A DNA stretch of 64,000 nt from a virus: the IMG/VR virus record IMGVR_UViG_3300027901_000002, positions 1 through 64,000 of that record. One strand, given 5' to 3'. A program made the translations under genes and the position numbers. Below the pieces are notes generated by a model that did no database searches, was not told the origin of the DNA, and was given only the letters and a program-made list of their open reading frames with translations. Below are positions 11,116 through 43,204 of the stretch, one piece after another; the stretch's first letter is position 1; every line of letters begins with the position of its first letter.

Positions 11116-11814
11116 TCACCAATAACTGTTTACAACTTCTTTAACTGTTTCGTCGAAATTGTTTTGTAAATTTTTTATTAATCTATCGTTTGATGTATGA
11201 TTCAAAATCTTCTTCTCTTGCTTCTCTTTTATTGAATGTCTTCCTCCATGATGTTTATGGTCTAACTTTTTAGGATGAAGAACTACTTTTTGTTTAAATA
11301 CTCTTGCAGCTAACATTAAATAATAAGAATGTTCTCCTAAATAATAAGACATTCTTTCGTCTATACCTCTTCCTTTTATTAAGAAAGGTCTGTAACAAAC
11401 TTCTATTGTTCCATTTCTACCAGTGTGTCTACCGTTTTTATCTAATATTTTAACTAAAAATCTAAGAGTAATTTTTTTAGGATCGTGATCTTTATAATAA
11501 TCGAGTATTAATTGAGCAAAATTAAGAGGATAAATAACGTCCATAGGAATCCTCACAAATAAGTCGTTCTTTGCTTCAAATATTGATTTGTTAGTCATTT
11601 TAGACATGTGGAAATAAACGTTTGGTGTTTTTTCTATTCTAAAAAATCTAAAACCGTAACTTTTTACTACTTGTTCTATATTATCTGTACTACTGTAGTC
11701 TACAACTATAATATCGTCGCTTTGTCCTTTTATACTATCGAAGACCTGTTTAACCCATTTAATTCCTCGTTGTTTTATTATATCAAAAGTGTAAAACGAA
11801 AAAGTAATTTTCAT
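11116..11814 (-). CDS. Glycosyltransferase family 2 (GT-A)
   Basis: SIKGQ..DIIVVDYSSTD, GIDERM. Confidence 0.75.
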   Translation of the reverse strand: MKITFSFYTFDIIKQRGIKWVKQVFDSIKGQSDDIIVVDYSSTDNIEQVVKSYGFRFFRIEKTPNVYFHMSKMTNKSIFEAKNDLFVRIPMDVIYPLNFAQLILDYYKDHDPKKITLRFLVKILDKNGRHTGRNGTIEVCYRPFLIKGRGIDERMSYYLGEHSYYLMLAARVFKQKVVLHPKKLDHKHHGGRHSIKEKQEKKILNHTSNDRLIKNLQNNFDETVKEVVNSYW

Positions 11815-12278
11815 AATATCATATCACTAGAAAATGTTTGCTTTTTAAATATATCGTTCCAATTATACAACAAATGGTACTTTTCTAATATTTGTTTTGG
11901 CGCTTCTAAAGAGGCCAAAAGAAAACCGTAATCGTTATTGATTTGAAAAAATAACCAATAACTATCATATACGTCGTAGACTTTTGCAGAAACTGTATTT
12001 GTTTCTAAAAAGTTTAGTATCTCTACGATTTTATTTAAATCGAAATATCCATCTCCAAACTTCAACATTTGCTGTCTATCGTCGCGTTTTGGTATTTCGT
12101 TAATTAAATATTCTTCTATGTCTTCGTTTCCGTATTCCTTAAAGAATTTCTTCAAATCGAGTAATCCTACAACTGTTCCAGCGCTTGCCGTTATTACGGC
12201 TTCGTTCGTGATTGGTTCTAAAGTTTCTCCGAAATGTACATTAAACCGCTTTCTTGTAGATTCCTTCTTCTTTATCAA
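11811..12278 (-). CDS. Hypothetical protein ending in DMIL
   Basis: Coupled ORF. Its C-terminal half loosely resembles a single clamp-like domain. Confidence 0.6.
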   Translation of the reverse strand: MIKKKESTRKRFNVHFGETLEPITNEAVITASAGTVVGLLDLKKFFKEYGNEDIEEYLINEIPKRDDRQQMLKFGDGYFDLNKIVEILNFLETNTVSAKVYDVYDSYWLFFQINNDYGFLLASLEAPKQILEKYHLLYNWNDIFKKQTFSSDMIL

Positions 12279-12624
12279 AAACTATATTACCTTTATTGAA
12301 TTCGTTTAAAGCTAATTCCAATCCCATTTTAAACAAAGAAGACTGCGCTAATTGATGAGTAGAATGATTACAAATGAATAAATTATCTAATCTATTGTCG
12401 TGTTTATCGAAGTTTATGTGGTGTATTTCTTCACCTTTTTTAAGATATCGTCCTAAATGTTTCTCCATAACTAAAACTTGTTCTTTCACATATCCTTTAT
12501 GATTTTTTGGGTGATCTACGCATCTTATCCATCTATATCCATTTTTTACGTTCCAGACTCCACCTTTCCATTGTGGGTGTTTTTCTCCAATGTTTAATTT
12601 ATGTCCTTTTACAAATTTAGTCAT
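12241..12624 (-). CDS. HNH homing-endonuclease-like protein
   Basis: Likely start MTKFVKG at 12624 (ATGA overlap). GEKHPQWKGG, VMEKHLGRYL..GEEIHHINFDKHDNRLDNL. Confidence 0.85.
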   Translation of the reverse strand: MTKFVKGHKLNIGEKHPQWKGGVWNVKNGYRWIRCVDHPKNHKGYVKEQVLVMEKHLGRYLKKGEEIHHINFDKHDNRLDNLFICNHSTHQLAQSSLFKMGLELALNEFNKGNIVFDKEEGIYKKAV

Positions 12625-13166
12625 TTCGCTTTCTTCCAAAAAGGTTCGTCTTTCACAAAAGCGTCGTAATCTATATAAAACACGTCCGCAAGTATCCAGA
12701 GAAAAGGTTGTGGTTTGTAACACAAAACTGTTATTTTCTTGTGCATGTTGTAAGCCCACACTAGTTCTATTGGAGTGCCAATCATTGTAATGTCTTTTGG
12801 AAACCATCCAAAATATTCGTGGCAATGTTTAACCATGTCGTAGTCTTTATCAACAATGTCTTTAGCGAAATCATAAGTAGGGTTTTCGTAATAATGGTTT
12901 ACACCATATTTTTCGTTTAGTCTATCCTCTTCTTTAAAAGGATTAATTACTTTATAATTTCTTCCTTCTAAGATTCTTTCGATCATTTCTTCTCTTTTGG
13001 AGTGCCATTTGTCGAAAGGGTGGGCAAAATATATAGTTCTTTTTTCTTTAAACCTCGCTGGATGGTCGACAGTCTTTGCGTATATATCTTCGTTTGCTTG
13101 TTTGTAAGACAATTTCTCACCTTTTTCTAAAATTCCTTTAGGGTTTATTTGTTTTGTGAAGTTCAT
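12621..13166 (-). CDS. Nucleoside 2-deoxyribosyltransferase-like protein
   Basis: IYFAHP, VINPF, IVDKD..MV, GTPIELVWAY. Confidence 0.7.
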   Translation of the reverse strand: MNFTKQINPKGILEKGEKLSYKQANEDIYAKTVDHPARFKEKRTIYFAHPFDKWHSKREEMIERILEGRNYKVINPFKEEDRLNEKYGVNHYYENPTYDFAKDIVDKDYDMVKHCHEYFGWFPKDITMIGTPIELVWAYNMHKKITVLCYKPQPFLWILADVFYIDYDAFVKDEPFWKKAK

Positions 13167-13410
13167 AAATTATCCTCGTTGTATAGTTTTCCTACCATTA
13201 TTCCTTTTACGTCTTTTGCTACTATCAAATCCATACCCATTACTTTTGTTCCAACCGTTTTAGCTGTCGTGTCTTTTATTAAAACTAAACTATCTAAAAT
13301 TTCCAATTCTACTTGTTCGTACTCGTCGTCGTTTATTATTAAGTGGGTAGGTTCAAAACCAAATCTATGTTTAAATTTCTCCTTTAAGAAGAAAATTTTT
13401 TTTAAATAAC

Positions 13411-14280
13411 TCATAATATCATATCGTCTCCTATTTTATCTTTTTTATCGTAATAATCCATCGTTGGAGTTTTCTTAGGATCGAAATTCCTAATCACGTA
13501 TTCGATATCTCTCGACTTTTCTCCTCCAACACAATAAGAAGAAGCGTTTACTCTCTCCACTTCTTGATAATACCAGTCTTCGTGGTGAAAATATTCTTTA
13601 CTATCAACTGTGAGAACGAAAAGAGCGCGTTTTAAATCGTAAAGTATTTCTCTTAAATCCTCAAAGTCTTGCGCGCCCCAAGCGTTTTCGTCTGTATCCA
13701 TTCCAGACATCTCTTCGTAAAGCTTTCCTCCTTTGAAATAAGGAGGGTCTAAGAAAAAAAGAACGCCTTCTTTATCTGCTCTCTTCATTAGATCTCTGAA
13801 GTCTTGACACTCAAATTGTACGAACTTTATTCGCTCGTAATACTCGTTGATGTTTTTTAATTTGTTAAGATAAGGGTGATGCCAGTGTTCTTTTCCAGTA
13901 AACGACATTCCGTGGTAGCAATTGTTCATTTGAGAGAACGAGTGATGATTCACGTAATAAAATCTCATAGCGTCTTCTATTGGATTTTCCGCTATGTTGT
14001 CTTTAAACTCGTCGAATAATTGTCGACTATCTATTCCACCCTCGTTTCTACAATAATCAACGAACTCTCTTCTTGCACTCTTAATTACTTTCCACATGTT
14101 CACGAGTCGAGAGTTTATATCGTTGAACACTTCTATTTCAGAAGGAACTTTGTTAAACAAAACCACACCAGACCCTCCAAACACTTCTATGAAAGTTGTG
14201 TGGACAGGGAAAGGCAAAAAATGTTTAAGGAGATTGTATTTTCCTCCGTACCAACCAATAATGGATTGACCTTTTCTCAT
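13411..14280 (-). CDS. dam: D12-class DNA adenine methyltransferase
   Basis: WYGGK, FIEVFGGSG, NDIN, DPPY. Confidence 0.9.
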   Translation of the reverse strand: MRKGQSIIGWYGGKYNLLKHFLPFPVHTTFIEVFGGSGVVLFNKVPSEIEVFNDINSRLVNMWKVIKSARREFVDYCRNEGGIDSRQLFDEFKDNIAENPIEDAMRFYYVNHHSFSQMNNCYHGMSFTGKEHWHHPYLNKLKNINEYYERIKFVQFECQDFRDLMKRADKEGVLFFLDPPYFKGGKLYEEMSGMDTDENAWGAQDFEDLREILYDLKRALFVLTVDSKEYFHHEDWYYQEVERVNASSYCVGGEKSRDIEYVIRNFDPKKTPTMDYYDKKDKIGDDMIL

Positions 14281-14419
14281 TTTATAAAATCTTCTACTAT
14301 TGATCTAATAATAAAACCACACATACAACTTCTACAACCAAATACCTGGCGTCCTTCTTTTGTTCTTCCAACTTTTATTACTTTTTCGCTTCCACACACT
14401 GGACAATATTCAACTTCTT

Positions 14420-14812
14420 TCATAACAATATCAACTTCTTTTCCCAATCTTCGTGGTATTTCTTAAAATGTTTTATTGTATTTTCAGTGCCTCCTGTTCT
14501 ATCTGGAGATATAATAGCAATTAAATAGTCTAAAGGTTCCTTTGCTATTTTCTCGTTTCTTTTGTAACATTCTTGTACAAATTCGTGATAAGGTAACCAA
14601 CCTCTTGGTATATTTTTTGATTTTACTTCTAATTCTATGTTGTGTTCTTTAGCTATTTTTCTTGCAAAATAGTCTCCGCCTCGTGTACAATCACCAGTAA
14701 CTATTTTTGTTACTTTTCCAAAATTATGTGTTAACCAGCCTAATTTTGCCATAAGACTGTAATAAGCTTGTTCGTCGTGTCTTCTTCTGCTACCAACTAT
14801 TCCAATTATCAT
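14420..14812 (-). CDS. SLOG/DprA-like (YspA/DUF2493-like) nucleotide-binding protein
   Basis: IGIVGSR, IVTGDCTRGGD, RNEKI, GGTENTI. Confidence 0.75.
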   Translation of the reverse strand: MIIGIVGSRRRHDEQAYYSLMAKLGWLTHNFGKVTKIVTGDCTRGGDYFARKIAKEHNIELEVKSKNIPRGWLPYHEFVQECYKRNEKIAKEPLDYLIAIISPDRTGGTENTIKHFKKYHEDWEKKLILL

Positions 14813-15122
14813 TCTTCAAAATCTCCTATACTTATTTTAAATCCACAGCCGTGCACGTTTATGCCGAAGTAATGTCCTTGACAAACGTATTCCATATCTA
14901 TCGCGTCGTAAATTAATGGCAGTCCGCATTTCGGACAATAATAAAATCCAAACCTTCTATCTTTTTCTAACTTCATTTTTAAAATCAATCCAAATTCTTT
15001 CTTTATAACACACTTCGTCTTTAAAAATCATACCACAATAATCACATACATACAAATTAAAACAATGATCTGTTATTTGATCGTCGTCCCAACACCACAT
15101 AAATTTCATTTCTTCTCCGCAT

Positions 15123-15827: not shown

Positions 15828-17492
15828 TCATAATATCATATCATTGCTTATTTCTGATTCTGCTTTTAATTTATAAAAGTCTGTATCTATTAAACTAAGA
15901 AAAGGCTCGGCCTTGAGATAAACTTGACTTCTTTTTAAGTCTTTGTAATTTGGTACGAATCCTTCTTCTTTAATTTTTTCTATATCTTCTTCGTCAAACG
16001 ACAAAACTAATTCGTTTCCTTTGTAGGGAGAAACAAACTTACCGTTTAACTTTTTTGGAAATTTCTCAAAAGGTATAATGTAAGGGTTATCGCCAGGATT
16101 AAATATTTTGTTAAAATAATCTCTTGCGTTTCTTGCTCCCCTAGAATTATAGTGACCAACTACATATTCGTCCATGTCGTTGTTCAAAGCTCCTTTCGGG
16201 GCTATGTAATCCCAAGGAAATTTCTCAAAATTGTCGTCTATAACTTTCATTAACAACTTAAAATCACTAGGAATATCTTCTGAATCTAATAAGATATTCA
16301 CTAACACTTCTTGCATGTCTGCCGAAAACCTAGAAGTGTTTCTTTTCTTCATGGATATACCTTTAATCTCTAATTGAGGTGTGTCTAATCTAGTTCCATC
16401 CATCCACACGTTTCTCTTCACGTAATTTTTTGCCGCTTTAACTAAGAATTTATCCGAGATAGATTCTAAACCAACCTTCATAGTGTGGTCTTGTATGTTG
16501 TAGACTTCTCTTAAATAGTCGTCTATTGCGGTGTTAATATGTTTTACTAACATTGCTGCTTCCCATTCTGCACTTAATAAATTATCAGATTTTAGGATAG
16601 GAAAACAGGAATCTGTGTCTCCTCCCACTATCTCGTAGCCAAAATTCCTAACAACGTTCATCATTTTCTTAGTTAAATCTTGACACATAACAGTACAAGA
16701 GTTAAAAACGAATTGAGAATAATTTCGATCCGCTCTTAGACCCATTATTCCGAACCCACCATTCGTGAAAGTTTTTATTCTAAATTGTTTACCATCTAAC
16801 AATTTATAAAACGGATCTTCTGAATTTTTCACTTTCTTAAGGTATTCTTTCGCTCTTTGTTGAGCGCGAATTCTATAACTTAACCATTTAGAGAATTTCT
16901 TTTTGTTTACGGATTCTATATCTTTTCTAAAGAAACCAATTGGAGTTTCTATAAGGAATTTTCTATTCCATTTTTCGCCGTTTTCATCCCAAACCCATTC
17001 GTCGTCGTATTTTTTTATTTTAATAGCAGTCCTTATTCCAGCGTTTGAACTCATAATAGCGTTTGGATATTGCTTATTAAAATCTATCGTTGCCACCCAT
17101 ACAAACATTCCTTTTCTTAAAGGAGGCGGAACATATCCTCCTACCTTTTTACCAACATCGTGTAGTGAATTATATTCTACAATTTCTCCTCTTCTTTTAG
17201 CAACTTCTTCTAAGTCTTTAAGAGTTATCGTAAATTTATCTCCTATCTGTTCTTTTGGTTTTAACGGTAATCTCTCCCATTGTTGGTATTTCGTGTCAAA
17301 AACCATTTTATCTCTAAAATCTCTTATTGTGTCGTGGTCGTGCATTTTAGAGGAATAAATACCGTCTTCTGGAGGAGCTACGACTAACTCAGCTTGTTCG
17401 AATTGATCTTGAACTAAATTAAACTTCTCATTAAGAAGAACTAAACCTTCAACATCAACAAGATTATAATCAAGAAGTTTTTTGCAATTCAT
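15828..17492 (-). CDS. polB: Family B DNA polymerase, C-terminal subunit (ExoIII + polymerase domain)
   Basis: YNLVDV (ExoIII), DFNKQYPN (motif A), KTFTNGGFG (motif B), GGDTDS (motif C), KNY, KG. Confidence 0.92.
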   Translation of the reverse strand: MNCKKLLDYNLVDVEGLVLLNEKFNLVQDQFEQAELVVAPPEDGIYSSKMHDHDTIRDFRDKMVFDTKYQQWERLPLKPKEQIGDKFTITLKDLEEVAKRRGEIVEYNSLHDVGKKVGGYVPPPLRKGMFVWVATIDFNKQYPNAIMSSNAGIRTAIKIKKYDDEWVWDENGEKWNRKFLIETPIGFFRKDIESVNKKKFSKWLSYRIRAQQRAKEYLKKVKNSEDPFYKLLDGKQFRIKTFTNGGFGIMGLRADRNYSQFVFNSCTVMCQDLTKKMMNVVRNFGYEIVGGDTDSCFPILKSDNLLSAEWEAAMLVKHINTAIDDYLREVYNIQDHTMKVGLESISDKFLVKAAKNYVKRNVWMDGTRLDTPQLEIKGISMKKRNTSRFSADMQEVLVNILLDSEDIPSDFKLLMKVIDDNFEKFPWDYIAPKGALNNDMDEYVVGHYNSRGARNARDYFNKIFNPGDNPYIIPFEKFPKKLNGKFVSPYKGNELVLSFDEEDIEKIKEEGFVPNYKDLKRSQVYLKAEPFLSLIDTDFYKLKAESEISNDMIL

Positions 17493-17679
17493 TTCTCTTT
17501 GTCTTTACGTATTTCCAAATATTTTCAAATACAAAATAATTTATTGTTTTAAAAACTTCAAGTATAATAGTTATTGTAGTCGTTATTTGAGGATTTCCAG
17601 TTACTAAAAAAACTATTGTACTAGTTAATAAAACACTCCAAATTCTATACAGTATCGACTTTAAGATCGTTTTTTTCAT
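17470..17679 (-). CDS. DUF2061-like small membrane protein
   Basis: KSILYRI...T..IV...TG...E...YF.FE.IW pattern. Confidence 0.7.
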   Translation of the reverse strand: MKKTILKSILYRIWSVLLTSTIVFLVTGNPQITTTITIILEVFKTINYFVFENIWKYVKTKRNELQKTS

Positions 17680-17774
17680 TTGTTATACCTTTAAATTCAT
17701 AACCACATGCTGGACATCTTAGAACGTAATATTCTTCAGTCCACTCCACTATCGCTAAAACGTCTTTTCCACAC

Positions 17775-18455
17775 TTACAACGGATAATACTTATCTTCAA
17801 CACCTAATATAAATTTATCGTAATAACACTTACTACAAAAATACACGTTTCTTGGATCGTGCATGTTTAACTTGAAAAATTTAAAACACCTAATACAGAG
17901 GTGTTCTTGTTGTTTCCACTTTTCTCTTTTTTCCCACTTGTCGCAAGTATCAGTATCGTAAGTCCAAGTTAAACATATTTCTGCTCCTTTGGAACAAAAC
18001 CCTTCTATTCTTTCGTACTGGTGCCAAAATTGACACGTTTTACACTGATTCTGCATATCTAAGATCTAAATCACTTCCACAATGTTCGCATATAAAATCT
18101 CTACCACCTAACGAAACGACGTGTTTACCATGAATACTTTTTACGATCATTAATTCAGTAGCACTCGTCATAAAATAAGTGTATTTTTTACAATACTGAC
18201 ATTCAAATCTCGCTATGTTCAAGGTAAATTGCCTTTTTTTCTTCTCTCCATTTCTTTTTCTATGATTTTAATTCCTTTACTAATAAGAGAATTTTCTTTT
18301 TTCAATTTAAAAATTTTTTCTCTGTTCCCTTTTCTTTTGTTTAACTCTTGTTTGTACATTTTTTCGAGTTCTTTGTCTGTTGCGTTGTAAGCTTTATTCC
18401 AAAATTGACCAAGAGCAATTTCCCTAGCCAATCCTTCTAAGCCTAACTTTTTCAT
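17775..18455 (-). other. Three small ORFs (two Cys-rich) inserted between the two PolB halves
   Basis: 17775-18056, 18040-18222 and 18219-18455, all overlapping their neighbours. Confidence 0.6.
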
Positions 18456-19698
18456 ATAATTTTTTCACCAAATTTTCTTTCTTTTTAGTGCCAACTAATT
18501 CTGGATTCGTAGGATCGTAATTAGAAGATAGATTATTCTTCCACATCTCCCATATTTGTTCTTTGTGAGGAACCTTACCAAATCCTAAGAAATAACTCAT
18601 GTATCCTTGTAGGTTTCCTTCTCTAAAATCGTTAAACTTCTTATGATACATAAAAATTTCGTTCGTATAAATCCAATCTATTTGACAAACGCCGTCTATT
18701 ACGACGCTTTGTTGATTGCCGTGAGACCTAAACCTCACACCTTTTAAATGGTTAGGTATAGGACTTAATTTCTGAATCTCGTCGAGCAAATCTAATTGTT
18801 TCGCTCTGTGATAAAGGTAAAGCATGTCAAAGCCGTTAAACCAATACTTACGAGAATATCCTTTCTTAGTAGAAATTTTATATCCTCCTTCTGTATTAAA
18901 ACCGTATTGAGCGTCTGGTCTAATAAGAGAATACCAATTAAAATAACTCTTCAACGTGTCTATTTCGTTGTCGTGAGAATGATTTATTACCGTGTTTATT
19001 TTATCGTATTCTTTATATCCTTTCAACGCTGGCACGTAATATTCTCCTCTTCTATTCCACTCGTTAGAGTTTATAATATTTACGCCATAAGGATGCCAGA
19101 AAAACCTATTGTAGGTTTCTGTGTAAGAATCGTACGCAGTTATGCTTATTATTTCACACTTTTCTGCGTCTTTGTAACCGTTAAAATTAGGGAAGACTGG
19201 TTCCGCGTTTGTTTCTATATCCCACGCTACAAATCTCACTGGAACGTAGAAGTGTTCGTCTTCTGAAAGTTCTGATATGTCGTCAACTTCCAACCATCTT
19301 TCTGTGTAATCGTCTGGAACGTTTATATAAGGAGTTCTTATTCCCATTTTTTCGATACACATTTTTTCCCATTTAACGTCTGATAAATAACTATGAGTAA
19401 ACAACTTTCTCAATTTTTTAACTTGCCAAGGGAAAGTCGTGTAACAAACTATTGTCTCTTCTCCATAATTAGAATTAGGAGCTTTATCAATTTTTATTAT
19501 TTCTTCTTGCTCTTCTGCTATCATTCTTTCTGCCGCTGGTACGTACATTTCTGGAGCAAGATTTTTTTTATCACACATAAAAACAGTGTGAAATTTCCAC
19601 TCCTTATCTCTACAAAAAAATAAGAGAATTGGAGCGTTGTACTTCTCTATATCACTATTGTTATTGTAGTACGAATAATTAACGATTTTTAGGTGCAT
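18424..19698 (-). CDS. polB: Family B DNA polymerase, N-terminal/3'-5' exonuclease subunit
   Basis: YLSDV.W, WDIET (ExoI), GFN...FD.LYL (ExoII), DG...ID, LG.GK. ExoIII is missing. Confidence 0.88.
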   Translation of the reverse strand: MHLKIVNYSYYNNNSDIEKYNAPILLFFCRDKEWKFHTVFMCDKKNLAPEMYVPAAERMIAEEQEEIIKIDKAPNSNYGEETIVCYTTFPWQVKKLRKLFTHSYLSDVKWEKMCIEKMGIRTPYINVPDDYTERWLEVDDISELSEDEHFYVPVRFVAWDIETNAEPVFPNFNGYKDAEKCEIISITAYDSYTETYNRFFWHPYGVNIINSNEWNRRGEYYVPALKGYKEYDKINTVINHSHDNEIDTLKSYFNWYSLIRPDAQYGFNTEGGYKISTKKGYSRKYWFNGFDMLYLYHRAKQLDLLDEIQKLSPIPNHLKGVRFRSHGNQQSVVIDGVCQIDWIYTNEIFMYHKKFNDFREGNLQGYMSYFLGFGKVPHKEQIWEMWKNNLSSNYDPTNPELVGTKKKENLVKKLYEKVRLRRIG

Positions 19699-20334: not shown

Positions 20335-21234
20335 TTATCGCTCGGGAATTTCTTCTTCTTCTTCATACAATACACCGTCCTTGTCCTGCGAACCAATTGA
20401 AAGTATCTGATAAAAATTTGCGTCCATAGTTTCTATTCTTAAAACAACTGTATCTTCACTAGTCTTCCTAAAATTAAGAATAATTTCGTCTTGTAAGTTA
20501 GGAACAATTCCTTGTAAAGCAGAAAATTTAACTGAAAAATCAATAATTTCTTTTCCTATGTTTTCAAATGGAACTCTGTGTTTTGATTGATTTGTTGAGT
20601 TAGGAGTTCCGCTCCATATTTCTATGTTTTCTCCCTCAGAAATTATAATTGTGTTGTTGTCTTTTGTTAAAGTTACAGCGTCTGCTACGAACTTTTTGAG
20701 ATCGTCTTTTTTAACTTTTATTCTCATTGGATAAATTGCGCTAGCGGTTCCTAGCGTAATCCTCCAAACACCAATTCCTTCTTGAGAAACTAAATCGTGA
20801 CTATCTTTCCAAGCATTAAGTTCTTTTTCTTTGTTAGTTATTTCGTCTAACGCTTTATCTCCAACAATTCTTCGTTTATACCAATCCCCTTCTTGACTTT
20901 CTATGTAAATAGCGTCTCCATCACAACTAACAATAATTGGTTTAGCTCCATCTAAATTTTTGAAAATAGTATCGAATACTGATTTGTCAGTTATTTCTAT
21001 AATACCTCCTTCTTCTACTTTCGCTCCTATTGAAGCAAGTTGTTTTATTTTGTTAAAATAAGTGTCGAGACTTAACACTCTTAACTTGTTTTCTTTGTCG
21101 TCGACTTCAATAAAAAAAGCAGAAAAAAGAGGAGCGTCTACTTTACCCTTCGATTTAAACTGCAAAGTACCTTTACAAGAAACTGCGTCCAAAAATTTTT
21201 TGAAATCCTTCGTTTTTATAGTAAATTTTACCAT
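20335..21234 (-). CDS. Putative sliding clamp (divergent PCNA-like)
   Basis: About 300 aa with two-fold internal similarity (FTIKTKDFKKFLDAV / IKVKKDDLKKFVADA). Lies near PolB, and RFC subunits are present. Confidence 0.6.
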   Translation of the reverse strand: MVKFTIKTKDFKKFLDAVSCKGTLQFKSKGKVDAPLFSAFFIEVDDKENKLRVLSLDTYFNKIKQLASIGAKVEEGGIIEITDKSVFDTIFKNLDGAKPIIVSCDGDAIYIESQEGDWYKRRIVGDKALDEITNKEKELNAWKDSHDLVSQEGIGVWRITLGTASAIYPMRIKVKKDDLKKFVADAVTLTKDNNTIIISEGENIEIWSGTPNSTNQSKHRVPFENIGKEIIDFSVKFSALQGIVPNLQDEIILNFRKTSEDTVVLRIETMDANFYQILSIGSQDKDGVLYEEEEEIPER

Positions 21235-21420: not shown

Positions 21421-22434
21421 TTACCATAGATCTTCCTCCTCCACATCTCCTCCCATAAGATAGGGCGCCATGTGTTCTATAAACTTGAATATTGCTGTTC
21501 TTTTCTTTAATGGATAGTAAATTCCAGAATTTTCTGCGGCTAAGAGACTTTTGTATCTACCATTAACTAAGTCAAAATAAGCAAGGCCATCTGCGTCTCT
21601 TTTAATCCACCACAATTGATCTAAGTTAAAGGCGTTGTCTCCAGAACCCTCGGCCCATTTAAAACTATACGGACTTGCTTTTGGATTTTTCTTTAGAGCC
21701 GCATTATACCAATGTTCTGGTTTTTCTATGACTTTTACTGTATCTATCTGCCACCCTGGATAATTCCTCTTCTTCTTCATAGTTTCGCTCCACCAAGCGT
21801 TTCTTATTTGCCACTGATTTTGATTCTCTACTTTAGAGAACATATCAGCTTCAAAAGTCGCTTCGTAAACAACAGAAAACATGTCGTTCAATACTTCGTA
21901 ATAAGAGCTTATAGAGTCTATAATAAAAAGAGTTTCTTCGTTAAAATCTTCTATTGCTAATTGTATAGCGTCTTCAACTTCTCTTTTTGCTTTAAAGAGT
22001 TCTTCGCTTCTAGCGTTAACTATGCTACCGTTTTTCATTTTTGTTTGTCTTTTTGGAATAGAAATTGTGTGGTATTCTATAATAGGTTTTAGAGGTTTTA
22101 ACAAATCAGAAAAAGTACCTTTTTGAGACAACTTATGAAAAGAGTTATCTAAATCAAGTATTCTTATAGCTGAAACTTCTGGCATGTATCCTCCTTTCAA
22201 TAATTTTATTGAGTTTGGATACAATTCTGGATCTAATTTGTCGACATATTTACTATTAAACATTCCAAACAAAGCCGCCATTAAAGATTTACCTAAATGT
22301 TCTTCTCCTAAGATAGCAAGATTAAGACCATATCTTGTGTCCTCTGTTATTTTCTTATATACTATTTTTTCTCTTATTGTATCGTCTTGTTTAGCTTCTG
22401 TTTGCTTTGCTTGGGTATATTTAGCAAATCCCAT
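21421..22434 (-). CDS. P-loop ATPase, AAA_24/Sak4/RecA-like
   Basis: GEEHLGKS Walker A, LDLD, IIDSIS Walker B. Adjacent to an SSB-like gene. Confidence 0.65.
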   Translation of the reverse strand: MGFAKYTQAKQTEAKQDDTIREKIVYKKITEDTRYGLNLAILGEEHLGKSLMAALFGMFNSKYVDKLDPELYPNSIKLLKGGYMPEVSAIRILDLDNSFHKLSQKGTFSDLLKPLKPIIEYHTISIPKRQTKMKNGSIVNARSEELFKAKREVEDAIQLAIEDFNEETLFIIDSISSYYEVLNDMFSVVYEATFEADMFSKVENQNQWQIRNAWWSETMKKKRNYPGWQIDTVKVIEKPEHWYNAALKKNPKASPYSFKWAEGSGDNAFNLDQLWWIKRDADGLAYFDLVNGRYKSLLAAENSGIYYPLKKRTAIFKFIEHMAPYLMGGDVEEEDLW

Positions 22435-23759
22435 TATAAATCACCAGTTAATTCTTTCGGAAAAACTATCTTTTCGTAGTTAATCAAAGTTTTATATCCA
22501 CAAATATTTATTCTTAAATCTGGATCGTCTGCGTCTTGAATAGTTTCTCTACTTTCTCTATCGTATTTAGTATTACCTCTTCCAGTTTTAACGCAAATTA
22601 ATATGTCTGCTGGTGTTGGAATATCCATAGGTAAATGTTCGTCGTAATTAACGTAATGAGATTCCTCTCCAGTCGAATCGTGTTGAATTACTGCTGGATT
22701 ATAGGTTTCCTTAAATTCTCTTTTACCTAAGTAAGTAACTTGGTCTATGACACAATATTCGTCCCAGTGCGTAACGTCCCATCCACTGTCTCTTTTAAGA
22801 ACTTTTTCCTTACCAGTTTTTTTATCTATTACTTTAACTACCCTCCTATCTAAGTGCCATTGTTTTATATCTGCTAATTCGATTATTGGAACTAAATCCT
22901 TTTGTTCTTTTCCTTTTGCTTCTTGTTGAAGCATAAACGAACCATTAACAGATTCTATTAATTGAACAACGTCAATTTCTTCACCTGGCTCTTCAAATAA
23001 GATAGGTTTGCTTCTTGCGTTTACAACGTAACATTCGTCGTTGCTTAAAGTTTCGTTTAATTGAACTTTCATTTTGTAAATCCTAAAAAAGTCTAAGTGT
23101 TTACACACAAATTGACCACTACCAGGATTACCTGCGTCTCCAAAAAATCTAACTTGGACTTTCTTTGTTAAGTCTGGAGTATCTTCAAAAAATCCAAGAC
23201 CAAACATTGTAGTCTTCCAATTGGGATACAATGGTCTCGACCATTGCCAATTTTCTGTTCCTCCTCCTTCTGCGTTTTCGTCGTCTTCTTTTCCTAAATG
23301 TGTTCTAAAGTCTCTACAAATAGGATTAATGTTCGTTGCTGCGTCCCATAATTCTCCTTTAGTTGGTATAAATTCACCATCTACTTCTACGTATTCTTCT
23401 ATCGAAATGAGCGGCTTCTTTTTGATACAATGAATTTTTCCTTCATCTATTACCTTCTTTCTACTTTCTGGATTGTTCCAGAACTCCTCAAGAATCTTTT
23501 CTCTTGTGGAGGCGTTCGTGTCTCTACTAGGATCTTTGCCAAAGAATATAACATTAATTTCTTTACCAATTTCAGATTGAGCTTGAGTTAATTTTGCTCT
23601 AACTGCGTGAAGAGCCGCTACGCTTAAAGAAGGTTCCTTTTTTCCAGTTTCTGCCGCTAGTTTATTTTTCGCCCATTCAAATAGTTCTACTATCTTTTCA
23701 AAGTCCTTGTTAAAAGACTTTGCTAAATTTTCTAATAGTTTTTTCATTTGTGCTTCCAT
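22434..23759 (-). CDS. Putative single-stranded DNA-binding (RPA-like) replication protein
   Basis: Inferred from position between RFC and ATPase/clamp, a helical N-terminus and a beta-rich body. No diagnostic motif. Confidence 0.4.
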   Translation of the reverse strand: MEAQMKKLLENLAKSFNKDFEKIVELFEWAKNKLAAETGKKEPSLSVAALHAVRAKLTQAQSEIGKEINVIFFGKDPSRDTNASTREKILEEFWNNPESRKKVIDEGKIHCIKKKPLISIEEYVEVDGEFIPTKGELWDAATNINPICRDFRTHLGKEDDENAEGGGTENWQWSRPLYPNWKTTMFGLGFFEDTPDLTKKVQVRFFGDAGNPGSGQFVCKHLDFFRIYKMKVQLNETLSNDECYVVNARSKPILFEEPGEEIDVVQLIESVNGSFMLQQEAKGKEQKDLVPIIELADIKQWHLDRRVVKVIDKKTGKEKVLKRDSGWDVTHWDEYCVIDQVTYLGKREFKETYNPAVIQHDSTGEESHYVNYDEHLPMDIPTPADILICVKTGRGNTKYDRESRETIQDADDPDLRINICGYKTLINYEKIVFPKELTGDL

Positions 23760-24581: not shown

Positions 24582-24582
24582 C

Positions 24583-25186: not shown

Positions 25187-26122
25187 TTAATCCTCTTCTA
25201 ATAATGAAAACAAGTAATTTATTTGAATAATTTCGCTACTATACATCCTTAATCTAGCGTCTACTTTTGCAAACGCTTTAGAATACTTAAGAGAATTATC
25301 ACCTAATAAATCGTAATATTCCTCTAAAAAATCTCTTACGTCAAACGCTTCTTGTCTATATATCTCAAAAAAAGTTGCTCTTGGATTTTCTGATTCGTAA
25401 ACTCTTTGAGCTACGCTCCTACCAGTTTGTTCGTAAATCTTATACAAGTGATCCGTTGTTATAGGGTTTTCGTATCCACGAAGAGCTTCTAAACAATCGT
25501 TTAGCATGTGTCTTAAATCCCCTTTATAATATTCTGCTATATTTTTAGACATTACTTCTGGGAAGTCGAATTCTACTCCTTCCTTATTAGCTATATCCAA
25601 AAATAACTTAGCTGATTGTTCAGTCGTAGGTCTTTTAAAAAAGAACGTAGCGCAACGAGAAATTAAAGCTGGTTCTTTTATACCAGATATGTTGTTTAAA
25701 CATAAAATAAACTTACACCTATCTTCGTTCTTTTCTATAACTGGTCTAAGAGCGTGTTGAAATTCTCGAGTAGAAGAATCAACCTCGTCTAATAAGATAA
25801 ATCTACAAGGGCTACCGCTTTCTGGTTTTGTTCTCGCAAATTCTTCTATTCTATCTCTTACTGTATCTATTCCTCTTTCGCTTGAAGCGTTTAGTTCTCT
25901 AAAGTCCTTATCTCCTTCGTTTGTATTAATATGAATCGGTCTTCCAAGAACTGTTCTTGCTACTAATAACGCCATAGTTGTTTTGCCACACCCTGGAGGC
26001 CCAACAAACATAAGATGAGGAATATCGCCAACTTCTAAAAGAGCTTTTATATCTTTTACTATTTGTTCGTTTCCTATAAACTCGTCGAAAGTTCGAGGAC
26101 GATACTTTCTATCAAGATTCAT
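25187..26122 (-). CDS. rfcS: Replication factor C small subunit
   Basis: KYRP.TFDE.IG, GPPGCGKTT, ELNAS.ERGID, LDEVD, SRC, GDLR. Confidence 0.95.
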   Translation of the reverse strand: MNLDRKYRPRTFDEFIGNEQIVKDIKALLEVGDIPHLMFVGPPGCGKTTMALLVARTVLGRPIHINTNEGDKDFRELNASSERGIDTVRDRIEEFARTKPESGSPCRFILLDEVDSSTREFQHALRPVIEKNEDRCKFILCLNNISGIKEPALISRCATFFFKRPTTEQSAKLFLDIANKEGVEFDFPEVMSKNIAEYYKGDLRHMLNDCLEALRGYENPITTDHLYKIYEQTGRSVAQRVYESENPRATFFEIYRQEAFDVRDFLEEYYDLLGDNSLKYSKAFAKVDARLRMYSSEIIQINYLFSLLEED

Positions 26123-37157: not shown

Positions 37158-38228
37158 TTATAAAACCATATCACCAGTAAATCTTAATAAGGTCGCTTGT
37201 TTTTTTTCTTTCTGTTTCTTTTGCTCTTTTGTTTCCTTTGGTTTTGTTTTCTTTTTCTTCCCATGTAACCAATCCTCTTTCTCCTCTTTTGGTTTAAACT
37301 TAATAGGAGGAAAATTCATTTTCGCCCTCTTATCGTGTTTTCCAAAATTAAGAAGAATCCCGTTAAGATATTTTTGTTTGTAGTCGTATTTGTATGTGTC
37401 TACAAAAGACAAATTTTCGCTTGGTGAGACACTTGAATAAAATTTATGAAGGTTGTTTCCCAACCAATTTAAAATAAAGATGAAAGGATGTTCGCAATTC
37501 TCGAAATCTTTTTTCTCACATTTTCCAGTCAATATTTTGTAAGCAACTTGCTGAGAACTAAGCTTTTCTTCTTCTATTGGTTTAAAGGATTTAATCCCAC
37601 TCAATATGTTTCTCAAAGTCACTCGCATGTCGGAGTCGTAAATATCCTCAATGTCTCCCTGCCAATCTGGATATTTTTTCTTAACGAATTGCTCTACGTC
37701 CTTTCGAGTAGGAGCTTGAAGTTTTAGCGGAGTCATTTGTTTTGCGACTGTTGCGTGAACCGTATCTTTTTTATTGACAATTACAATAAAAGGATTTTTG
37801 GATTCTTTTACGTAAAAATTAATGAGAGCATAAGCTCTCCAGTAAAAGGAGTCTCCCTCTACTACGAAGATAGTGTTCCTCGTTTGTAGAGGGAGTTGTG
37901 CAAAATCCTTCAGTAAATCCTCGGTGTTTCTAGGATAAGAGTATTTTATCTGCCACCCAATTTCGCTGGCAATAAGTCTTGGGAGTGAGGATTTTCCAAC
38001 GCCATGTTCGCCAAACAAAAGGATTTTTTCGTTATTAAGGATAAGCTTTCGCAATTGATTTCTTTGTTTTTCGTTTCCCGCGATTAAAAAACTCGCCAAA
38101 ATTTTTTTGCCTGTGTAATTTTCGTAAGCTGTTGTGCATTCTTCAACAGTTGAATTACACAGGCAAGCGATTTCAGGTAATGTAAACCTATTCTGATATA
38201 CTAATTTTTTTACGCGTTTTCCTAACAT
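37158..38228 (-). CDS. rfcL: Replication factor C large subunit-like AAA+ protein
   Basis: GEHGVGKS, degenerate Walker B, D.R..L sensor, basic tail with PIP-like QATLLRF. ATG 38228 is preferred over the track's 38258 start, which lies inside the ncRNA. Confidence 0.75.
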   Translation of the reverse strand: MLGKRVKKLVYQNRFTLPEIACLCNSTVEECTTAYENYTGKKILASFLIAGNEKQRNQLRKLILNNEKILLFGEHGVGKSSLPRLIASEIGWQIKYSYPRNTEDLLKDFAQLPLQTRNTIFVVEGDSFYWRAYALINFYVKESKNPFIVIVNKKDTVHATVAKQMTPLKLQAPTRKDVEQFVKKKYPDWQGDIEDIYDSDMRVTLRNILSGIKSFKPIEEEKLSSQQVAYKILTGKCEKKDFENCEHPFIFILNWLGNNLHKFYSSVSPSENLSFVDTYKYDYKQKYLNGILLNFGKHDKRAKMNFPPIKFKPKEEKEDWLHGKKKKTKPKETKEQKKQKEKKQATLLRFTGDMVL

Positions 38229-38237
38229 AAATTTAAG

Positions 38238-38366
38238 TAAGGAAGGTCGGATTTGCACCGACGCTTTCTTAGGTGATGGTCTCAGTAAAGAAAGTCTAAA
38301 ATAGATAAGCGGACGTCCTTACCATCATTACCGTCAGTAGGCTTTACGCTATCTATTTTCTTCCTT
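38238..38366 (-). ncRNA. tRNA-like structured RNA (acceptor stem + T-arm, two extended kissing arms)
   Basis: AAGGAAG/CUUCCUU 7-bp terminal stem, GUCGG-UGCAAAU-CCGAC T-arm, 13-bp and 7-bp arms, complementary loops UGAUGGU/ACCAUCA. Confidence 0.75.
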
Positions 38367-39428: not shown

Positions 39429-39566
39429 TTCGAGTCGGTAGAGTTCGTCAACTCAGTGTTTCACATGCATGTTACGCACACCCCTGATAGCTCCTTGCTG
39501 TTGATTGAGGTAAGTGCAATGAGCACGTCTCTCGCTCCTTAGGAGTCCGTCTTAGGAGGCACCGAT
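39429..39566 (-). ncRNA. BHB-flanked element C (138 nt): predicted intron/circular RNA
   Basis: CGAG-AAA-UCGGU ... ACCGA-CUCG-AAA; GC-rich and structured. Confidence 0.75.
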
Positions 39567-39979
39567 TTCTCGTCTAACTCTTTTAACCATCTATTTATAA
39601 AACCATTTATTTCGTGAGTTGGAACGTTATATCCGCTTGGACTACCTTCAGACCATTTGTTTAAAATTCTTTGCGTTTCTAACAAAACTAGTTCTGCCAT
39701 AGTTTTTCTTTCTTTCAGAAGGTGTTGTTTTCTACTTAATTCCGCTTTTTCGTACATTCCATCTCTATAAAGCATTCTTGCAAACTTCATTTTTTGACGC
39801 AATTCAAAAATACCTAAATAATGACGATTAAACATTTCCACCAAAAACCTAGAATTTCGTCCTCTTTTTTCGAGCATTTTAATTGCTTTGTAAGTTCGCA
39901 AAAAATTACCAATACTTAGTTTAATTGGATTAGTACTTATATTACTACAAATTGATTCTATTTTTTCTCTTTTTGACAT
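39539..39979 (-). CDS. Hypothetical protein; 3' end interrupted by BHB element C
   Basis: 146-aa ORF. The predicted spliced form ends ELDEK-stop. Confidence 0.6.
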   Translation of the reverse strand: MSKREKIESICSNISTNPIKLSIGNFLRTYKAIKMLEKRGRNSRFLVEMFNRHYLGIFELRQKMKFARMLYRDGMYEKAELSRKQHLLKERKTMAELVLLETQRILNKWSEGSPSGYNVPTHEINGFINRWLKELDEKSVPPKTDS

Positions 39980-40194
39980 TATTTTTCGTCTAATTTAGAT
40001 ATTGGACAATTTTCCCAATCTTGTGAATTGTAACAACCGCTAGTACATCCTCCTCCTTTGCCACATATTTCTCCACCACCTCTTAAATCTACAAGATATG
40101 GACATGTTGTTTTACAAATCCACGTAACATGGTTCCAAGGGCAGTTGTTTATGTATTCACAACCTATACAATAATCTACGCTATAACTTGGCAT
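39979..40194 (-). CDS. Small Cys-rich protein
   Basis: Likely ATG at 40194 (MPSYSVDYC...), 10 cysteines. Confidence 0.6.
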   Translation of the reverse strand: MPSYSVDYCIGCEYINNCPWNHVTWICKTTCPYLVDLRGGGEICGKGGGCTSGCYNSQDWENCPISKLDEK

Positions 40195-40196
40195 AT

Positions 40197-40341
40197 ATCG
40201 AGTCGGCCTCAATTGAGATTTTTGCTCTGGCTTGGGAAATTTGCATGCTTTCCAAAATAGTTAAAAGCTATAAAGTTTATAATCCAATGGGATCTCTAGT
40301 CCCTGTCTACCCCCCAAGAGGCCGTCGCAGAGCTTACCGAT
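40197..40341 (-). ncRNA. BHB-flanked element B (145 nt)
   Basis: CGAG-AAA-UCGGU ... GCCGA-CUCG-AUA; inner stems GCUCUG/CAGAGC and CUUGGG/CCCAAG. Confidence 0.7.
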
Positions 40342-40427
40342 TTCTCGTTCGGCGGGATGTAGTGACAATACGCACCGTCCCTATGTGACCTTCCTTATTA
40401 CTCTTACGAGCTATGCCCTATACCGAT

Positions 40428-40559
40428 TTCGAGTCAGCTGGAGCTCCCAAAGAACTTTCGGTTAGAGACGATATACGCTTCAACCTCCCCTGCATCCACT
40501 CGTGTAGAGTCTTTCTCTCTACTCAGGATCTACGGCTGTCCCGCTTCGTTCACGCTGAT
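40428..40559 (-). ncRNA. BHB-flanked element A (132 nt)
   Basis: CGAG-AAA-UCAGC ... GCUGA-CUCG-AAA; inner GUAGAG/CUCUAC hairpin. Confidence 0.75.
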
Positions 40560-40877
40560 TTCTCGTATTCTTTCTTGTCTTCTTTTCTTAATTTCTTCTA
40601 ACTCACTTTTCGGAACTGGTTTTAACTTTACGCCTTCCGCAAAAACCAATTTTAATTCTTTTACCAATTCTTGCTTTACGCCGCTAATTTTAGGAGCAAA
40701 TTTTGGAGGTTTCGGAGGAGGGTTCCAAGTAGGACGAGAAATAAATCTTTTCGTCCCAACGAACCTAAGAAAACTACTTCTATTTCTCCCTTCCAATTCT
40801 GCGTTTTCGTCTATTTTCTTTAGCTCCTCTTCATTAACCCAAAAACTAATTTTTATTGCTCTTTTTCGATGCGACAT
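40530..40877 (-). CDS. Ribbon-helix-helix (CopG-like) protein; 3' end interrupted by BHB element A
   Basis: ISFWVNEEELKKIDENA..EGRNRSSFLR. Confidence 0.75.
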   Translation of the reverse strand: MSHRKRAIKISFWVNEEELKKIDENAELEGRNRSSFLRFVGTKRFISRPTWNPPPKPPKFAPKISGVKQELVKELKLVFAEGVKLKPVPKSELEEIKKRRQERIREISVNEAGQP

Positions 40878-41205
40878 AAGAAACCGATGTGTTAACCTTT
40901 AAGAATTGGTAAATAAATTGCTGTTAATAATATAAACGCAAGTAAATGTACGACAACCCAAAATATAGCAATTACGATTGCTATTTTTTCGTCTTTATCC
41001 ATTTTAACCCAAATTTTTCAAAAAAATTACCAAACAATCTATCGAACAAAAATCAAGCCTACATTCGTAGTAGGTTCCTGTTGTTTTATTGTTTTCGTCT
41101 GAAATATTAATATCAAACGTGCAGTTATCCTTACTAGAAATAGTAATCCAACCAACACATTTTCTAACTTCGTCTAACGTTCCTTCTCTTCCACAACTAT
41201 CGCAT

Positions 41206-41589
41206 TTATATTTTGTTATTTTCAAACTTTTCGAACTTCTCAATTATTTTTTTTACTTCTGGATGAACTTCCATCGAAGCTCCAGCTCTAATTTTAGTTC
41301 CAGAAATAACTTTCACATCTTCTGGAACTTCTACTAAAGAGTATCCAACTCCTCTTCCAATAGCAACCATTTCTATGTCTGGAATCGTAATAATTTTTAC
41401 CATTCCAGTTAAAATTTCGTCTTGATACACAACAGAAATCATTCTGTATCTAAGCCAAAGAGGATATTTTTCTTCGCTATCTCTTATTGCGATACAAACT
41501 GGCTTTCCGTTAAGTAAGAAAGAGTCTATAATTGTTTTATGTCCTAAATGGAAAGGAGACCACCGACCAATAAACAAATTATATTTCAT
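41206..41589 (-). CDS. Cytidylyltransferase-like (HIGH) nucleotidyltransferase
   Basis: IGRWSPFHLGH, GRGVGY, ISGTKIR. Confidence 0.85.
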   Translation of the reverse strand: MKYNLFIGRWSPFHLGHKTIIDSFLLNGKPVCIAIRDSEEKYPLWLRYRMISVVYQDEILTGMVKIITIPDIEMVAIGRGVGYSLVEVPEDVKVISGTKIRAGASMEVHPEVKKIIEKFEKFENNKI

Positions 41590-42664
41590 TTTGTAAAATC
41601 TCTTGTAAATACGTGTTCGCCGTGAAGTGTTCTTTCTATTGCGTTAAGATAAGTTGTTTCAAAAATAATCCATTTATCACAGTCCACACATTTATCGTTT
41701 TCTACTTTTCCTCCACAAAAACAACAAACAGCGTCGTGGAAGTCGGCAATAATAATTCTTACATTAACAAGCATTTTTATTAATTCTTGTTTATCCATGT
41801 TGAAATATTCAACAATTGGTAGATATTTTTCCATTTTAATCCTTGTCTCTATATATTTCAGCATAAGCTCGCATTGGCTTTATAACGTAAAAATAAAACG
41901 ACAACTTGTTAAACTTTGGATGTTTAACGTTTATTAAACATTCAGTAAGAACGTCGGCAAAAGTATCTAAATATATCGCGAGTTCTCCGCGAGACATGTC
42001 TTTAAAATTCTCGTGTCTGCTACCAACGCAAAAATTGTTACTAATTATTTTCATACCCTCCTCCTCAATTTTTATTTTATTTTTCGATTTTGTAAGCTAA
42101 CTTCGCTTCTCTTATTATTTCTTCGAATTTGTCCTTGTCTTCGTACCACCACAATATTGGCTCTGCACCAAAATCAGCAACTATTTGGTAGCCGCATACT
42201 GGACACTCCCATAAATCAGCGTGAAAAATATAATCGTTTTCTTTGTAAACTATAACTCCGTTTCTTTTACAATCTAAATATACGCCACAATCTACGCAAA
42301 TTTTTCTCCATTCGTTCATTTTATTTCCTCTTGTAATTTTTACACGTTCCTAAGTAAAAAGTTATAGGAATAAGGTGCTTTTTGCACCAATGATCTTTAC
42401 AATGTTTGCAACTAAGACAAACTTTCTTCATATTTCGCTTTCCCACCGTTCTATAATTGGCGTAAGGTCTGCAAACCTTGCAATTAAGAAAGTAATTCCC
42501 ACGACTGCATTTAATATTGCAAGAAACAAGAAAATACTAAAAAAACTTTTTTCGTCGTTTTTTAATGTTTCCATAGCAAACCAAACACACACGCCACTCA
42601 TTCCAAACATAAAGCAAATAGAAACAATTGCTATTATATTTACTATAAGTTCTCCAACTAACAT

Positions 42665-43204
42665 TTATAACACCATATCGCTCGTTATGTTAATTTTTAT
42701 GAATACTTCGTCGAAACTCAAATTTTTAGGCTCGTTTATTTCGGCACCTAAAATTTTTTTCGCGTCTTCCTTTTCCTCTTCGTCTAACTCGTAAAGTTGT
42801 TGATACACGTAAGAATAAGTATCGTCTAATTTGAATTCCAAATAACATTGACCACTTGGTATAGCAATCGCCCTTACTTCAAAAGGTTGATTGCCGTAAT
42901 AAGCTTCGATAAATTTTTTTGTTTCGTAATAAAAAAATCTTATTCCTTTCTCTAAGAATATCACTACGTCGTCTTTTTGTTTATAATCAAAGTTAAAATT
43001 AACGAGTTTAAAATTTCTTTTAATTATTATACCGTCTGGCGTTTTTGTTCTATCAACAATGTGATCTATTCCACAAAACCAAACTATGTAGTGATTTTTT
43101 TCCAGTAAATCTTCTTTTAAATCTTCTTCTTTGTATCCCCAATAATTCACGAGGACTTTCTTTACGCTTTCAGGGATCATCGTCTTCAGTTTTAACCAAA
43201 CCAA
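42665..43204 (-). CDS. Hypothetical protein ending in DMVL
   Basis: About 170-179 aa ORF in operon. Confidence 0.6.
   Translation of the reverse strand: MVWLKLKTMIPESVKKVLVNYWGYKEEDLKEDLLEKNHYIVWFCGIDHIVDRTKTPDGIIIKRNFKLVNFNFDYKQKDDVVIFLEKGIRFFYYETKKFIEAYYGNQPFEVRAIAIPSGQCYLEFKLDDTYSYVYQQLYELDEEEKEDAKKILGAEINEPKNLSFDEVFIKINITSDMVL

Follow-up and report, generated by a model that had tools for sequence, protein, structure and literature searches.

Why should five genes of one virus end in the same short peptide? This question is raised by a DNA stretch of 64,000 nucleotides, referred to here as the window, which comprises positions 1 to 64,000 of the IMG/VR virus record IMGVR_UViG_3300027901_000002. 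The source record, of which the window is a part, has 99,014 bases with direct terminal repeats and is rated complete. A first-pass annotation, made from the sequence alone, had noted five proteins ending in D-M-[IV]-L and proposed a virus-specific tag for clamp binding or targeting. The five C-termini were found as written there, all of them on minus-strand genes, and up to 63 kb into the window every gene is on this strand. The carriers are a D12-class N6-adenine DNA methyltransferase of 289 amino acids (aa), called Dam (13411-14280; IGDDMIL), the C-terminal, polymerase part of a split family B DNA polymerase, PolB (15828-17492, 554 aa; ISNDMIL, with residues 548-554 forming the tail), an AAA+ clamp-loader-like subunit of 366 aa, called RFC-L (37158-38258; FTGDMVL), and two small proteins without a family match, one of 155 aa (11811-12278; FSSDMIL) and one encoded by an open reading frame (ORF) of 179 codons (42665-43204; ITSDMVL). 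In RFC-L, the tail stands behind a Lys-rich linker and the protein ends QATLLRFTGDMVL.

The shared tail is real and far beyond chance. Five DMxL ends were observed, and 0.019 were expected from the amino-acid composition (binomial P ~2e-11, calculated for a crude set of 162 genes). No further DMxL C-terminus was detected among the ORFs of at least 50 aa when the complete genome of 99 kb was scanned, and at internal positions the gene set has just two occurrences of the tetrapeptide. The motif can be extended, since position -7 is always F, I or V and two small or polar residues lie between it and the Asp, giving [FIV]-x-x-D-M-x-L-COOH. In three complete genomes, five to six genes with a shared tail are present per genome, compared to 0.001-0.02 expected. 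At the DNA level, GAT, ATG and TTA are indeed invariant among the five tails, as had been stated, and the word GATATGRTNTTR is found six times on the minus strand, with 0.19 copies expected, and never on the opposite strand; none of 100 shuffled sequences contained six copies. Occurrence of this word out of frame or in non-coding DNA had been named as an observation that would speak against a peptide signal. Scanning the whole genome revealed a single out-of-frame copy (22323-22334, minus strand) within gene 21421-22434 and none in intergenic DNA. This copy was judged a chance match; it is within chance and is outweighed by the protein-level evidence.

Profile matches agreed with the earlier assignments of Dam and PolB. 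Dam matched Pfam PF02086 (E 5e-24, 85.8 bits with a cut-off of 22) and PHROG 56 (E 1e-51), and PolB matched Pfam DNA_pol_B (E 9e-20) and PHROG 262. For RFC-L, a weak match to the clamp-loader family PHROG 168 was obtained (E 6.5e-4). PDB profile matches over residues 59-191 were RFC4 (1sxj_B, E 1.9e-5) and the RFC small subunit of Pyrococcus (1iqp_A, E 4.4e-5); RFC subunits gave the longest matches, and midasin, a generic AAA+ protein, scored higher over a shorter stretch. An invariant G-x-G-K (Walker A) is present in the alignment of this family. As judged from these similarities, the product is likely a clamp-loader subunit of RFC type, while its designation as the large subunit is presumptive, relying on a separate gene resembling that of the RFC small subunit and on the C-terminal clamp tail. 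This second gene (25187-26122, minus strand) specifies an AAA+ protein of 311 aa with matches to Pfam AAA, DNA_pol3_delta2 and Rad17 and without the tail. The five carriers had been regarded as unrelated to each other. This does not apply to the two small proteins, which are distant paralogues (hhalign probability 94.8, E 5e-8, a score to which the shared tail adds), and the tail is therefore distributed over four unrelated families.

An alignment-based scan of viral contigs yielded five related virus records, designated G001 to G005, with the window genome as G000; a scan with a single polymerase sequence had detected no relatives. PolB homologues with 62-73% identity end in DMIL, DMEL, DMVL, DMQL, DMDL or DMML. 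In G001, a complete genome of 99.5 kb, orthologues of all five carriers and a C5-methylase fragment end in DMEL, amounting to six tails. DMEL is found on five proteins of G002 and DMIL on three of G005, and in G003 DMQL, DMEL and DMIL occur side by side. Homologues of the 179-codon ORF product end in DMLL, DMEL, DMAL and DMEL, and the four relatives with an orthologue of the 155-aa protein all carry the tail on it. Across the relatives D, M and the final L are fixed, and position -2 is occupied by I, V, E, Q, M, K, A, L or D; this position varies between genomes and tends to uniformity within one genome. The codons GAC, CTG and GAG appear as variants in the tails of relatives, all three stop codons are used, and the hydrophobic residue at -7 is specified by seven different codons. 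The sequence following the tail also differs among the five window genes. One tail is followed by about 175 bases without an ORF of at least 40 aa, another by a separate ATG, and three of the five end in TTATGA, in which the start codon of the next gene is contained as part of an ATGA overlap. The tail as a mere by-product of such overlaps was rejected as the chief explanation, since no overlap exists at two of the window's five tails and at many tails of the relatives. D-M-x-L is maintained through changes in codons, stop codons and position -2, which identifies the signal as a peptide, and the protein-level reading favoured in the first-pass annotation is borne out by these data and by other shared peptides in distant relatives.

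In these distant relatives the tail is not lost, it is exchanged. G004 is a complete virus of 88.6 kb with 47% G+C and shows 25-33% protein identity to the window virus. Its orthologues of PolB (unsplit), Dam and RFC-L end in D-P-[WF]-x-F, and the same ending is present on an N6_N4 methylase and a 198-aa protein; five such ends were observed and 0.001 expected. Dam orthologues thus end in DMIL, DMEL or DPWYF, depending on the genome, and RFC-L orthologues in AGDMEL (G001) or VDPFDF (G004). On metagenome contigs encoding PolB with 38-45% identity further tails were detected, each common to PolB and one to five neighbouring genes: GDMM[QMI]P, GDMMQ[KI], GD[SGL]L[LA][IL], GDF[ML]D. (a dot standing for any residue) and ..[FI][LM]DV. 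A comparison of the last four residues gave 18% identity for orthologues across genomes, close to the 16% of unrelated pairs, and 71% for different proteins of one genome; the 71% is inflated, because these proteins were picked by likeness to the PolB tail, a bias of which the between-genome figure is free. Because distant lineages carry different peptides on the same families, a DNA component cannot be the full account. These sequences suggest that every lineage uses a form of the tail of its own, and tail and clamp pocket probably evolve together.

A candidate for the receptor is encoded by gene 20335-21234 (minus strand, 299 aa), situated between the gene of a P-loop protein and the polymerase genes, which had been annotated as a divergent clamp. 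Pfam PCNA_N and PCNA_C had no match in the whole genome at E values up to 10, no PHROG match was found for the protein, and the PDB profile search with its family returned only the Sulfolobus PCNA 3aix_B (E 0.55). Among 1.8 billion representative proteins, 28 homologues were detected. Structure prediction is the basis for the assignment. The AlphaFold2 (AF2) model, calculated from a 27-sequence alignment, reached a mean predicted local distance difference test (pLDDT) score of 92.6 and a predicted TM score of 0.88. All matches listed by Foldseek in the PDB are sliding clamps, mostly eukaryotic and archaeal PCNA and a few bacterial beta clamps; for the PCNA rows, E was about 1e-11, the probability 1.00 and the TM score by target 0.67-0.75. 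Two similar beta-alpha-beta domains joined by a connector were found in the model. Judged by this model, the product is a sliding clamp of PCNA fold, and the annotation as a divergent clamp holds without a Pfam match. Homologues are located upstream of the polymerase gene in those relatives whose contigs extend there, and the homologue of G004 is recognized with E 3e-27 by a profile built without it. The model has helices 127-134 and 136-144 where PCNA has an extended interdomain connecting loop, and Trp142 sits in this helical connector. The clamp ends in a disordered acidic tail, YEEEEEIPER, which is longer in G001.

Complex prediction, named in the first-pass annotation as a check, was carried out with the clamp family and PolB residues 515-554, using our own alignments and three controls consisting of unrelated partners and an unrelated chain in place of the clamp. 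The PolB tail was placed on the clamp with an ipSAE of 0.83, and the best of the three controls scored 0.00. The mark applied to this score is reached by 58 of 80 solved complexes and by 2 of 110 mismatched pairs, counts that are approximate owing to our own alignments. Over three runs, the contacts agreed by at least 71%, and pLDDT of the partner was at least 52. Low-error contacts come from PolB residues 547-554 (E-I-S-N-D-M-I-L) and involve clamp residues 24-25, 59-64, 141-145, 159-166, 238-239, 258-266 and 279-283, that is, both domains, the connector and the C-terminal strand. By topology rather than superposition, this predicted site would correspond to the general location of the PIP groove (PIP, PCNA-interacting protein) in PCNA. 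As a prediction, the model supports binding of the tail to the clamp, and the control results argue against a trivial complex score.

Two details of the predicted interface can be compared with sequence variation. Met at -3 (M552) is predicted to touch W142 of the clamp, a residue shared by nine of the ten clamps compared and without variation in a six-sequence alignment; for G004, the residue aligned with W142 differs between alignments. For tail positions -2 and -1, the predicted contacts are with clamp residues 258-260. In the four close relatives with I, V, Q, M or K at -2, residue 259 is Ser or Gly; the only clamp with Lys there is that of G001, whose six tails all carry Glu at -2. Lys259 and Glu(-2) may represent one compensatory change, as co-evolution of a hub with its ligands predicts. 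In lineages with tails of the GDMMxP type, many pocket positions differ (59-62, 159, 161, 238-239 and 266).

From these analyses it appears quite probable that the DMxL tail is a C-terminal peptide, specific to the lineage, by which proteins dock to the PCNA-fold clamp encoded by the virus itself; this is essentially the clamp-binding tag of the first-pass annotation, now backed by conservation of the peptide, a clamp of PCNA fold and a controlled complex prediction. The analysis shows that several proteins have the tail in common, that it is conserved as a peptide and replaced between lineages, and that the clamp has its fold; the contact is supported by a model, and the function is inferred. 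The short peptide [FIV]-x-x-D-M-x-L-COOH at the free C-terminus, in at least RFC-L behind a flexible linker, would bind a groove of the viral clamp formed by both domains, the interdomain connector and the C-terminal strand. The viral pair of RFC-like proteins would load the clamp, and the loader subunit could hold it through the same peptide. Once loaded, the clamp would carry the polymerase and confer processivity, and would recruit Dam and the two small paralogous proteins to newly made DNA. Tail and pocket would co-evolve, giving each viral lineage its own tail. In the wider clade, DNA methyltransferases are the commonest clients after the polymerase, and viral DNA would likely be methylated during copying as a protection against restriction.

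Several points weigh against this interpretation. Tail codons are more uniform than genome usage, with GAT in 21 of 22, TTA in 21 of 22 and TGA in 17 of 22 tails of close relatives, although these rows are not independent, as orthologues share ancestry. Common descent, the ATGA overlaps or copying of short DNA also contribute to this uniformity, and the copying of a short DNA segment between genes is a conceivable way by which the tails spread. The tails fail the PIP consensus QxxhxxAA, and a Q-x-x-L-x-x-F is located upstream only in RFC-L. The pairing of Lys259 with Glu(-2) is a single evolutionary event, and the three different tails of G003 (DMQL, DMEL, DMIL) coexist with one clamp, indicating that -2 is not strictly matched to it. 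The complex prediction covers the PolB tail, one of five, and may have passed partly by likeness, since many PCNA-peptide complexes have been solved.

How do other explanations compare? A common partner is indicated by a shared, co-varying tail, which does not tell which partner it is, and the peptide might dock to another hub, such as host PCNA, the 441-aa protein encoded by 22434-23759, the P-loop ATPase encoded by 21421-22434 or the RFC-like complex. The host also changes between lineages and could thereby account for lineage-specific tails, and a PIP-like Q-x-x-h-x-x-F precedes the RFC-L tail in G000 and G001. Against such a hub, the virus encodes its own clamp and loader, the complex model places the tail on the viral clamp with 0.00 for the control in which the clamp was replaced, a contact residue of this clamp changes along with tail position -2, and the tail has neither the Q nor the two aromatic residues that characterize archaeal PIP motifs (PMC4929162). 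We consider another hub unlikely. A signal for sorting or turnover, either a degron or a tag directing proteins to the replication compartment or the virion, is still more improbable: it would leave the recurring polymerase, clamp-loader and methyltransferase carriers as well as the modelled contact unexplained, and the tail is absent from the plus-strand genes of the putative structural block (~63-97 kb), even though degrons and PDZ-type recognition typically involve a hydrophobic C-terminus that is free, and two of the carriers have no family match.

It is also hardly credible that the tail is a by-product of a nucleic-acid signal, in which GATATGRTNTTR together with the stop would act in translational coupling, in RNA processing or in recombination. 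Such a signal would account for the invariance of GAT, ATG and TTA in the window, the over-use of GAT, TTA and TGA in close relatives, the TTATGA at three of five tails with its ATG for the next gene, and the one extra copy out of frame. It does not fit with the variants CTG, GAC and GAG, with TAA and TAG as stops, or with the seven codons by which the hydrophobic residue at -7 is kept. Nor does it fit with the tail that precedes about 175 bases free of ORFs of at least 40 aa, with the one that precedes a separate ATG, or with the lack of GATATGRTNTTR on the other strand and in intergenic DNA. In distant lineages, the same families carry quite different tails and DNA. Docking to the viral clamp is thus retained as the best explanation.

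Which proteins would be brought to the clamp in this way? In other lineages, DNA methyltransferases make up the majority. Of 20 further tail carriers tested in metagenome loci, 15 belong to this group, and the families represented are PF02086 (D12 Dam), PF01555 (N6_N4) and PF00145 (C5). Additional carriers in the related virus records are the N6_N4 methylase of G004, the C5-methylase fragment, which is found in G001 and G002, and a protein of G002 with a weak radical-SAM match. Searching the window's genome for the three Pfam families gave no DNA methyltransferase besides the tailed Dam. The recurrent set of clients consists of polymerase, clamp-loader subunit and DNA-modifying enzymes, which fits a clamp better than any other hub. 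The methyltransferase-rich client list suggests that viral DNA is methylated during synthesis, that is, replication-coupled methylation, the purpose of which can be presumed only. No paper on clamp-tethered viral methyltransferases was found in a search that covered part of the literature. A more general proposal would be a private, fast-evolving clamp-and-tail code, in which each clamp has its own peptide, clients switch jointly, the replisome is kept from host PCNA traffic, and orphan methyltransferases of three unrelated families are the main cargo besides the polymerase, methylating DNA at the fork before restriction. For this broader version we see about even chances.

The closest precedent is found in phage T4, with gp43, gp33 and gp55 binding to gp45. 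Highly similar short hydrophobic and acidic peptides at the extreme C-termini of the polymerase and of unrelated proteins, attached by a variable linker, bind the phage-encoded clamp, which is loaded onto DNA by a phage-encoded loader, and clamp binding as well as the interchangeability of the tails have been demonstrated by experiment (PMC2988020). The viruses described here resemble T4 in having the same short peptide at the C-terminus of the polymerase and unrelated proteins (five proteins in G000, six in G001, five in G004), and the window virus further resembles it in encoding clamp and loader itself (a PCNA-fold clamp and two RFC-like AAA+ genes) and in a polymerase that is gp43-like by PHROG 262. 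It differs in that it is of archaeal type, with a gene similar to that of transcription factor B (TFB), an RFC-like loader and a PCNA-fold clamp. The tail sequence is another one, and the contact is derived from a predicted complex for one tail. The clients other than polymerase are a DNA methylase, a clamp-loader subunit and two paralogues, in contrast to the transcription factors of T4.

The PIP motif, QxxhxxAA, has Gln at position 1, a hydrophobic residue at 4 and aromatic residues at 7 and 8, and is often C-terminal in PolB, the RFC large subunit, Fen1, NucS and NreA (PMC4929162). The DMxL tail shares with it the C-terminal position on polymerase and clamp-loader subunit, a receptor of PCNA fold and a predicted site comprising both domains, connector and C-terminal strand. 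Unlike in PIP motifs, Gln is missing in four of the five proteins and an aromatic pair in all tails, the invariant residues are Asp, Met and a terminal Leu with its free carboxylate, and the divergence of the clamp puts it outside the reach of the Pfam PCNA models. A PIP-like motif in RFC-L had been pointed out in the first-pass annotation, with the conjecture that this protein might engage both host and viral clamps. The Q-x-x-h-x-x-F is indeed present just before the tail in G000; it is kept in one close relative, G001, and is absent from the distant G004. It may be a remnant of an ancestral PIP of RFC-L.

In eukaryotes, the methyltransferase DNMT1 is brought to the replication fork by an N-terminal PIP box that binds PCNA, and there performs maintenance methylation of the cell's own DNA. 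The arrangement proposed here is similar, with a clamp-binding peptide on a methyltransferase and methylation of new DNA as it is made. It is different in that viral orphan methylases of three families would use a virus-specific C-terminal tail, presumably for anti-restriction. Bacterial beta clamps bind a motif of the QL[SD]LF type, which is short, often terminal and common to many clients, and the clamp itself is a dimer of three-domain subunits; neither the consensus nor the kind of clamp is like those described here. Regarding gene content, the window virus resembles the 'Nidhogg' viruses of Asgard archaea, for which a preprint lists a haloarchaeal-myovirus-related PolB, RFC-small- and RFC-large-like ATPases and C5, N4 and D12 methylases, and no shared tail (10.1101/2021.07.29.454249). 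This likeness is a comparison of gene content only.

Clamp-interaction motifs common to several clients of one viral clamp are already known. The system described here is distinguished by a sequence that is not of PIP type, by tails that switch in concert between lineages and by its methyltransferase cargo, and a PCNA-fold clamp was found that sequence models miss. If the docking function is true, the tails provide a simple sequence rule for clamp clients in viruses with otherwise unrecognisable proteins, and two paralogues without family match would be flagged as replisome-associated. The lineages would also constitute a natural series of matched clamp-peptide pairs, showing how a hub and its ligands shift specificity together. 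Orphan methyltransferases riding the clamp would explain timely protection of new viral DNA and mirror DNMT1 and PCNA.

Regarding the two small carriers, neither a match in Pfam or PHROG nor a usable lead from the protein Atlas was obtained, and word-based homologue searches added three relatives for one and none for the other. For the ORF of 179 codons, the probable start is the 9th codon, a Met at 43180, resulting in a protein of 171 aa. The AF2 model of this protein had a pLDDT of 75, and Foldseek with this model returned nothing below E 0.28. VIA-align placed clamp-fold chains at the top with Z 4-5.7, which is too low to indicate more than a common arrangement, and hhalign of the 171-aa family with the clamp family gave a probability of 0.45%. 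The gene is located just downstream of the TFB-like gene (43324-44394, minus strand), which has the Pfam TFIIB zinc ribbon and a cyclin repeat. By analogy with T4 late genes, a hypothetical link between clamp and transcription is conceivable. The TFB-like gene, an ERCC4 nuclease and the RFC-like genes suggest, on sequence grounds, a virus of archaea.

The split of the polymerase is variable among these viruses. The N-terminal, exonuclease part is encoded by 18424-19698 (minus strand, 424 aa), aligns with positions 34-308 of PHROG 262 and has no tail; within 15828-19698, about 0.9 kb of small ORFs separates the two polymerase genes. A single gene encodes PolB in G004 (1028 aa) and in most relatives with about 30-46% identity. 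An intein-sized insert is present in the C-terminal part in G002 (875 aa) and in P0009 (880 aa, with matches to Pfam intein and LAGLIDADG families); besides the window genes, the loci concerned are L021:1327-3954 and P0009. No terminator was found following the RFC-L gene.

Other C-termini in the neighbourhood of the clamp gene are conserved as well. Gene 21421-22434 (minus strand) specifies a protein of 337 aa with a Walker A-like G-E-E-H-L-G-K-S, to which no family could be assigned by Pfam, PHROGs or PDB profiles. It ends in EEEDLW, and this tail is kept in every relative as NDEELW, KEEELW or KEEDLW, or as TDDDLW in G004; in lineages with 38-45% polymerase identity DDDIFG.SVIF[KR] is found at its position. 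From sequence conservation, EEEDLW has the appearance of another docking tail, better conserved than DMxL and directed to a different partner. The adjacent gene 22434-23759 (minus strand, 441 aa) had been described as encoding a protein similar to single-stranded-DNA-binding proteins and ending in LTGDL. The ending is correct; the similarity was not recovered, as no match was obtained in Pfam, PHROGs or PDB profiles. The C-terminus, [LV]-[TG]-G-D-L in close relatives, ..EGDM or ..QGD in distant lineages and different in G004, is reminiscent of the clamp tail in its first half. A block of minus-strand genes downstream of those for replication (729-1979, 8993-9754 and 9751-11814) encodes glycosyltransferases (GT1, GT2), a sulfotransferase and two S-adenosylmethionine-dependent methyltransferases of non-DNA type, none of which carries the tail. 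Finally, an ORF for an HNH endonuclease (12241-12825, minus strand; Pfam HNH_3, E 5e-10) and the conserved gene 12621-13166 overlap in the 3' part of the latter. The ORF is absent in the five relatives and is therefore probably a recent mobile insertion between the tailed 155-aa gene and its neighbour.

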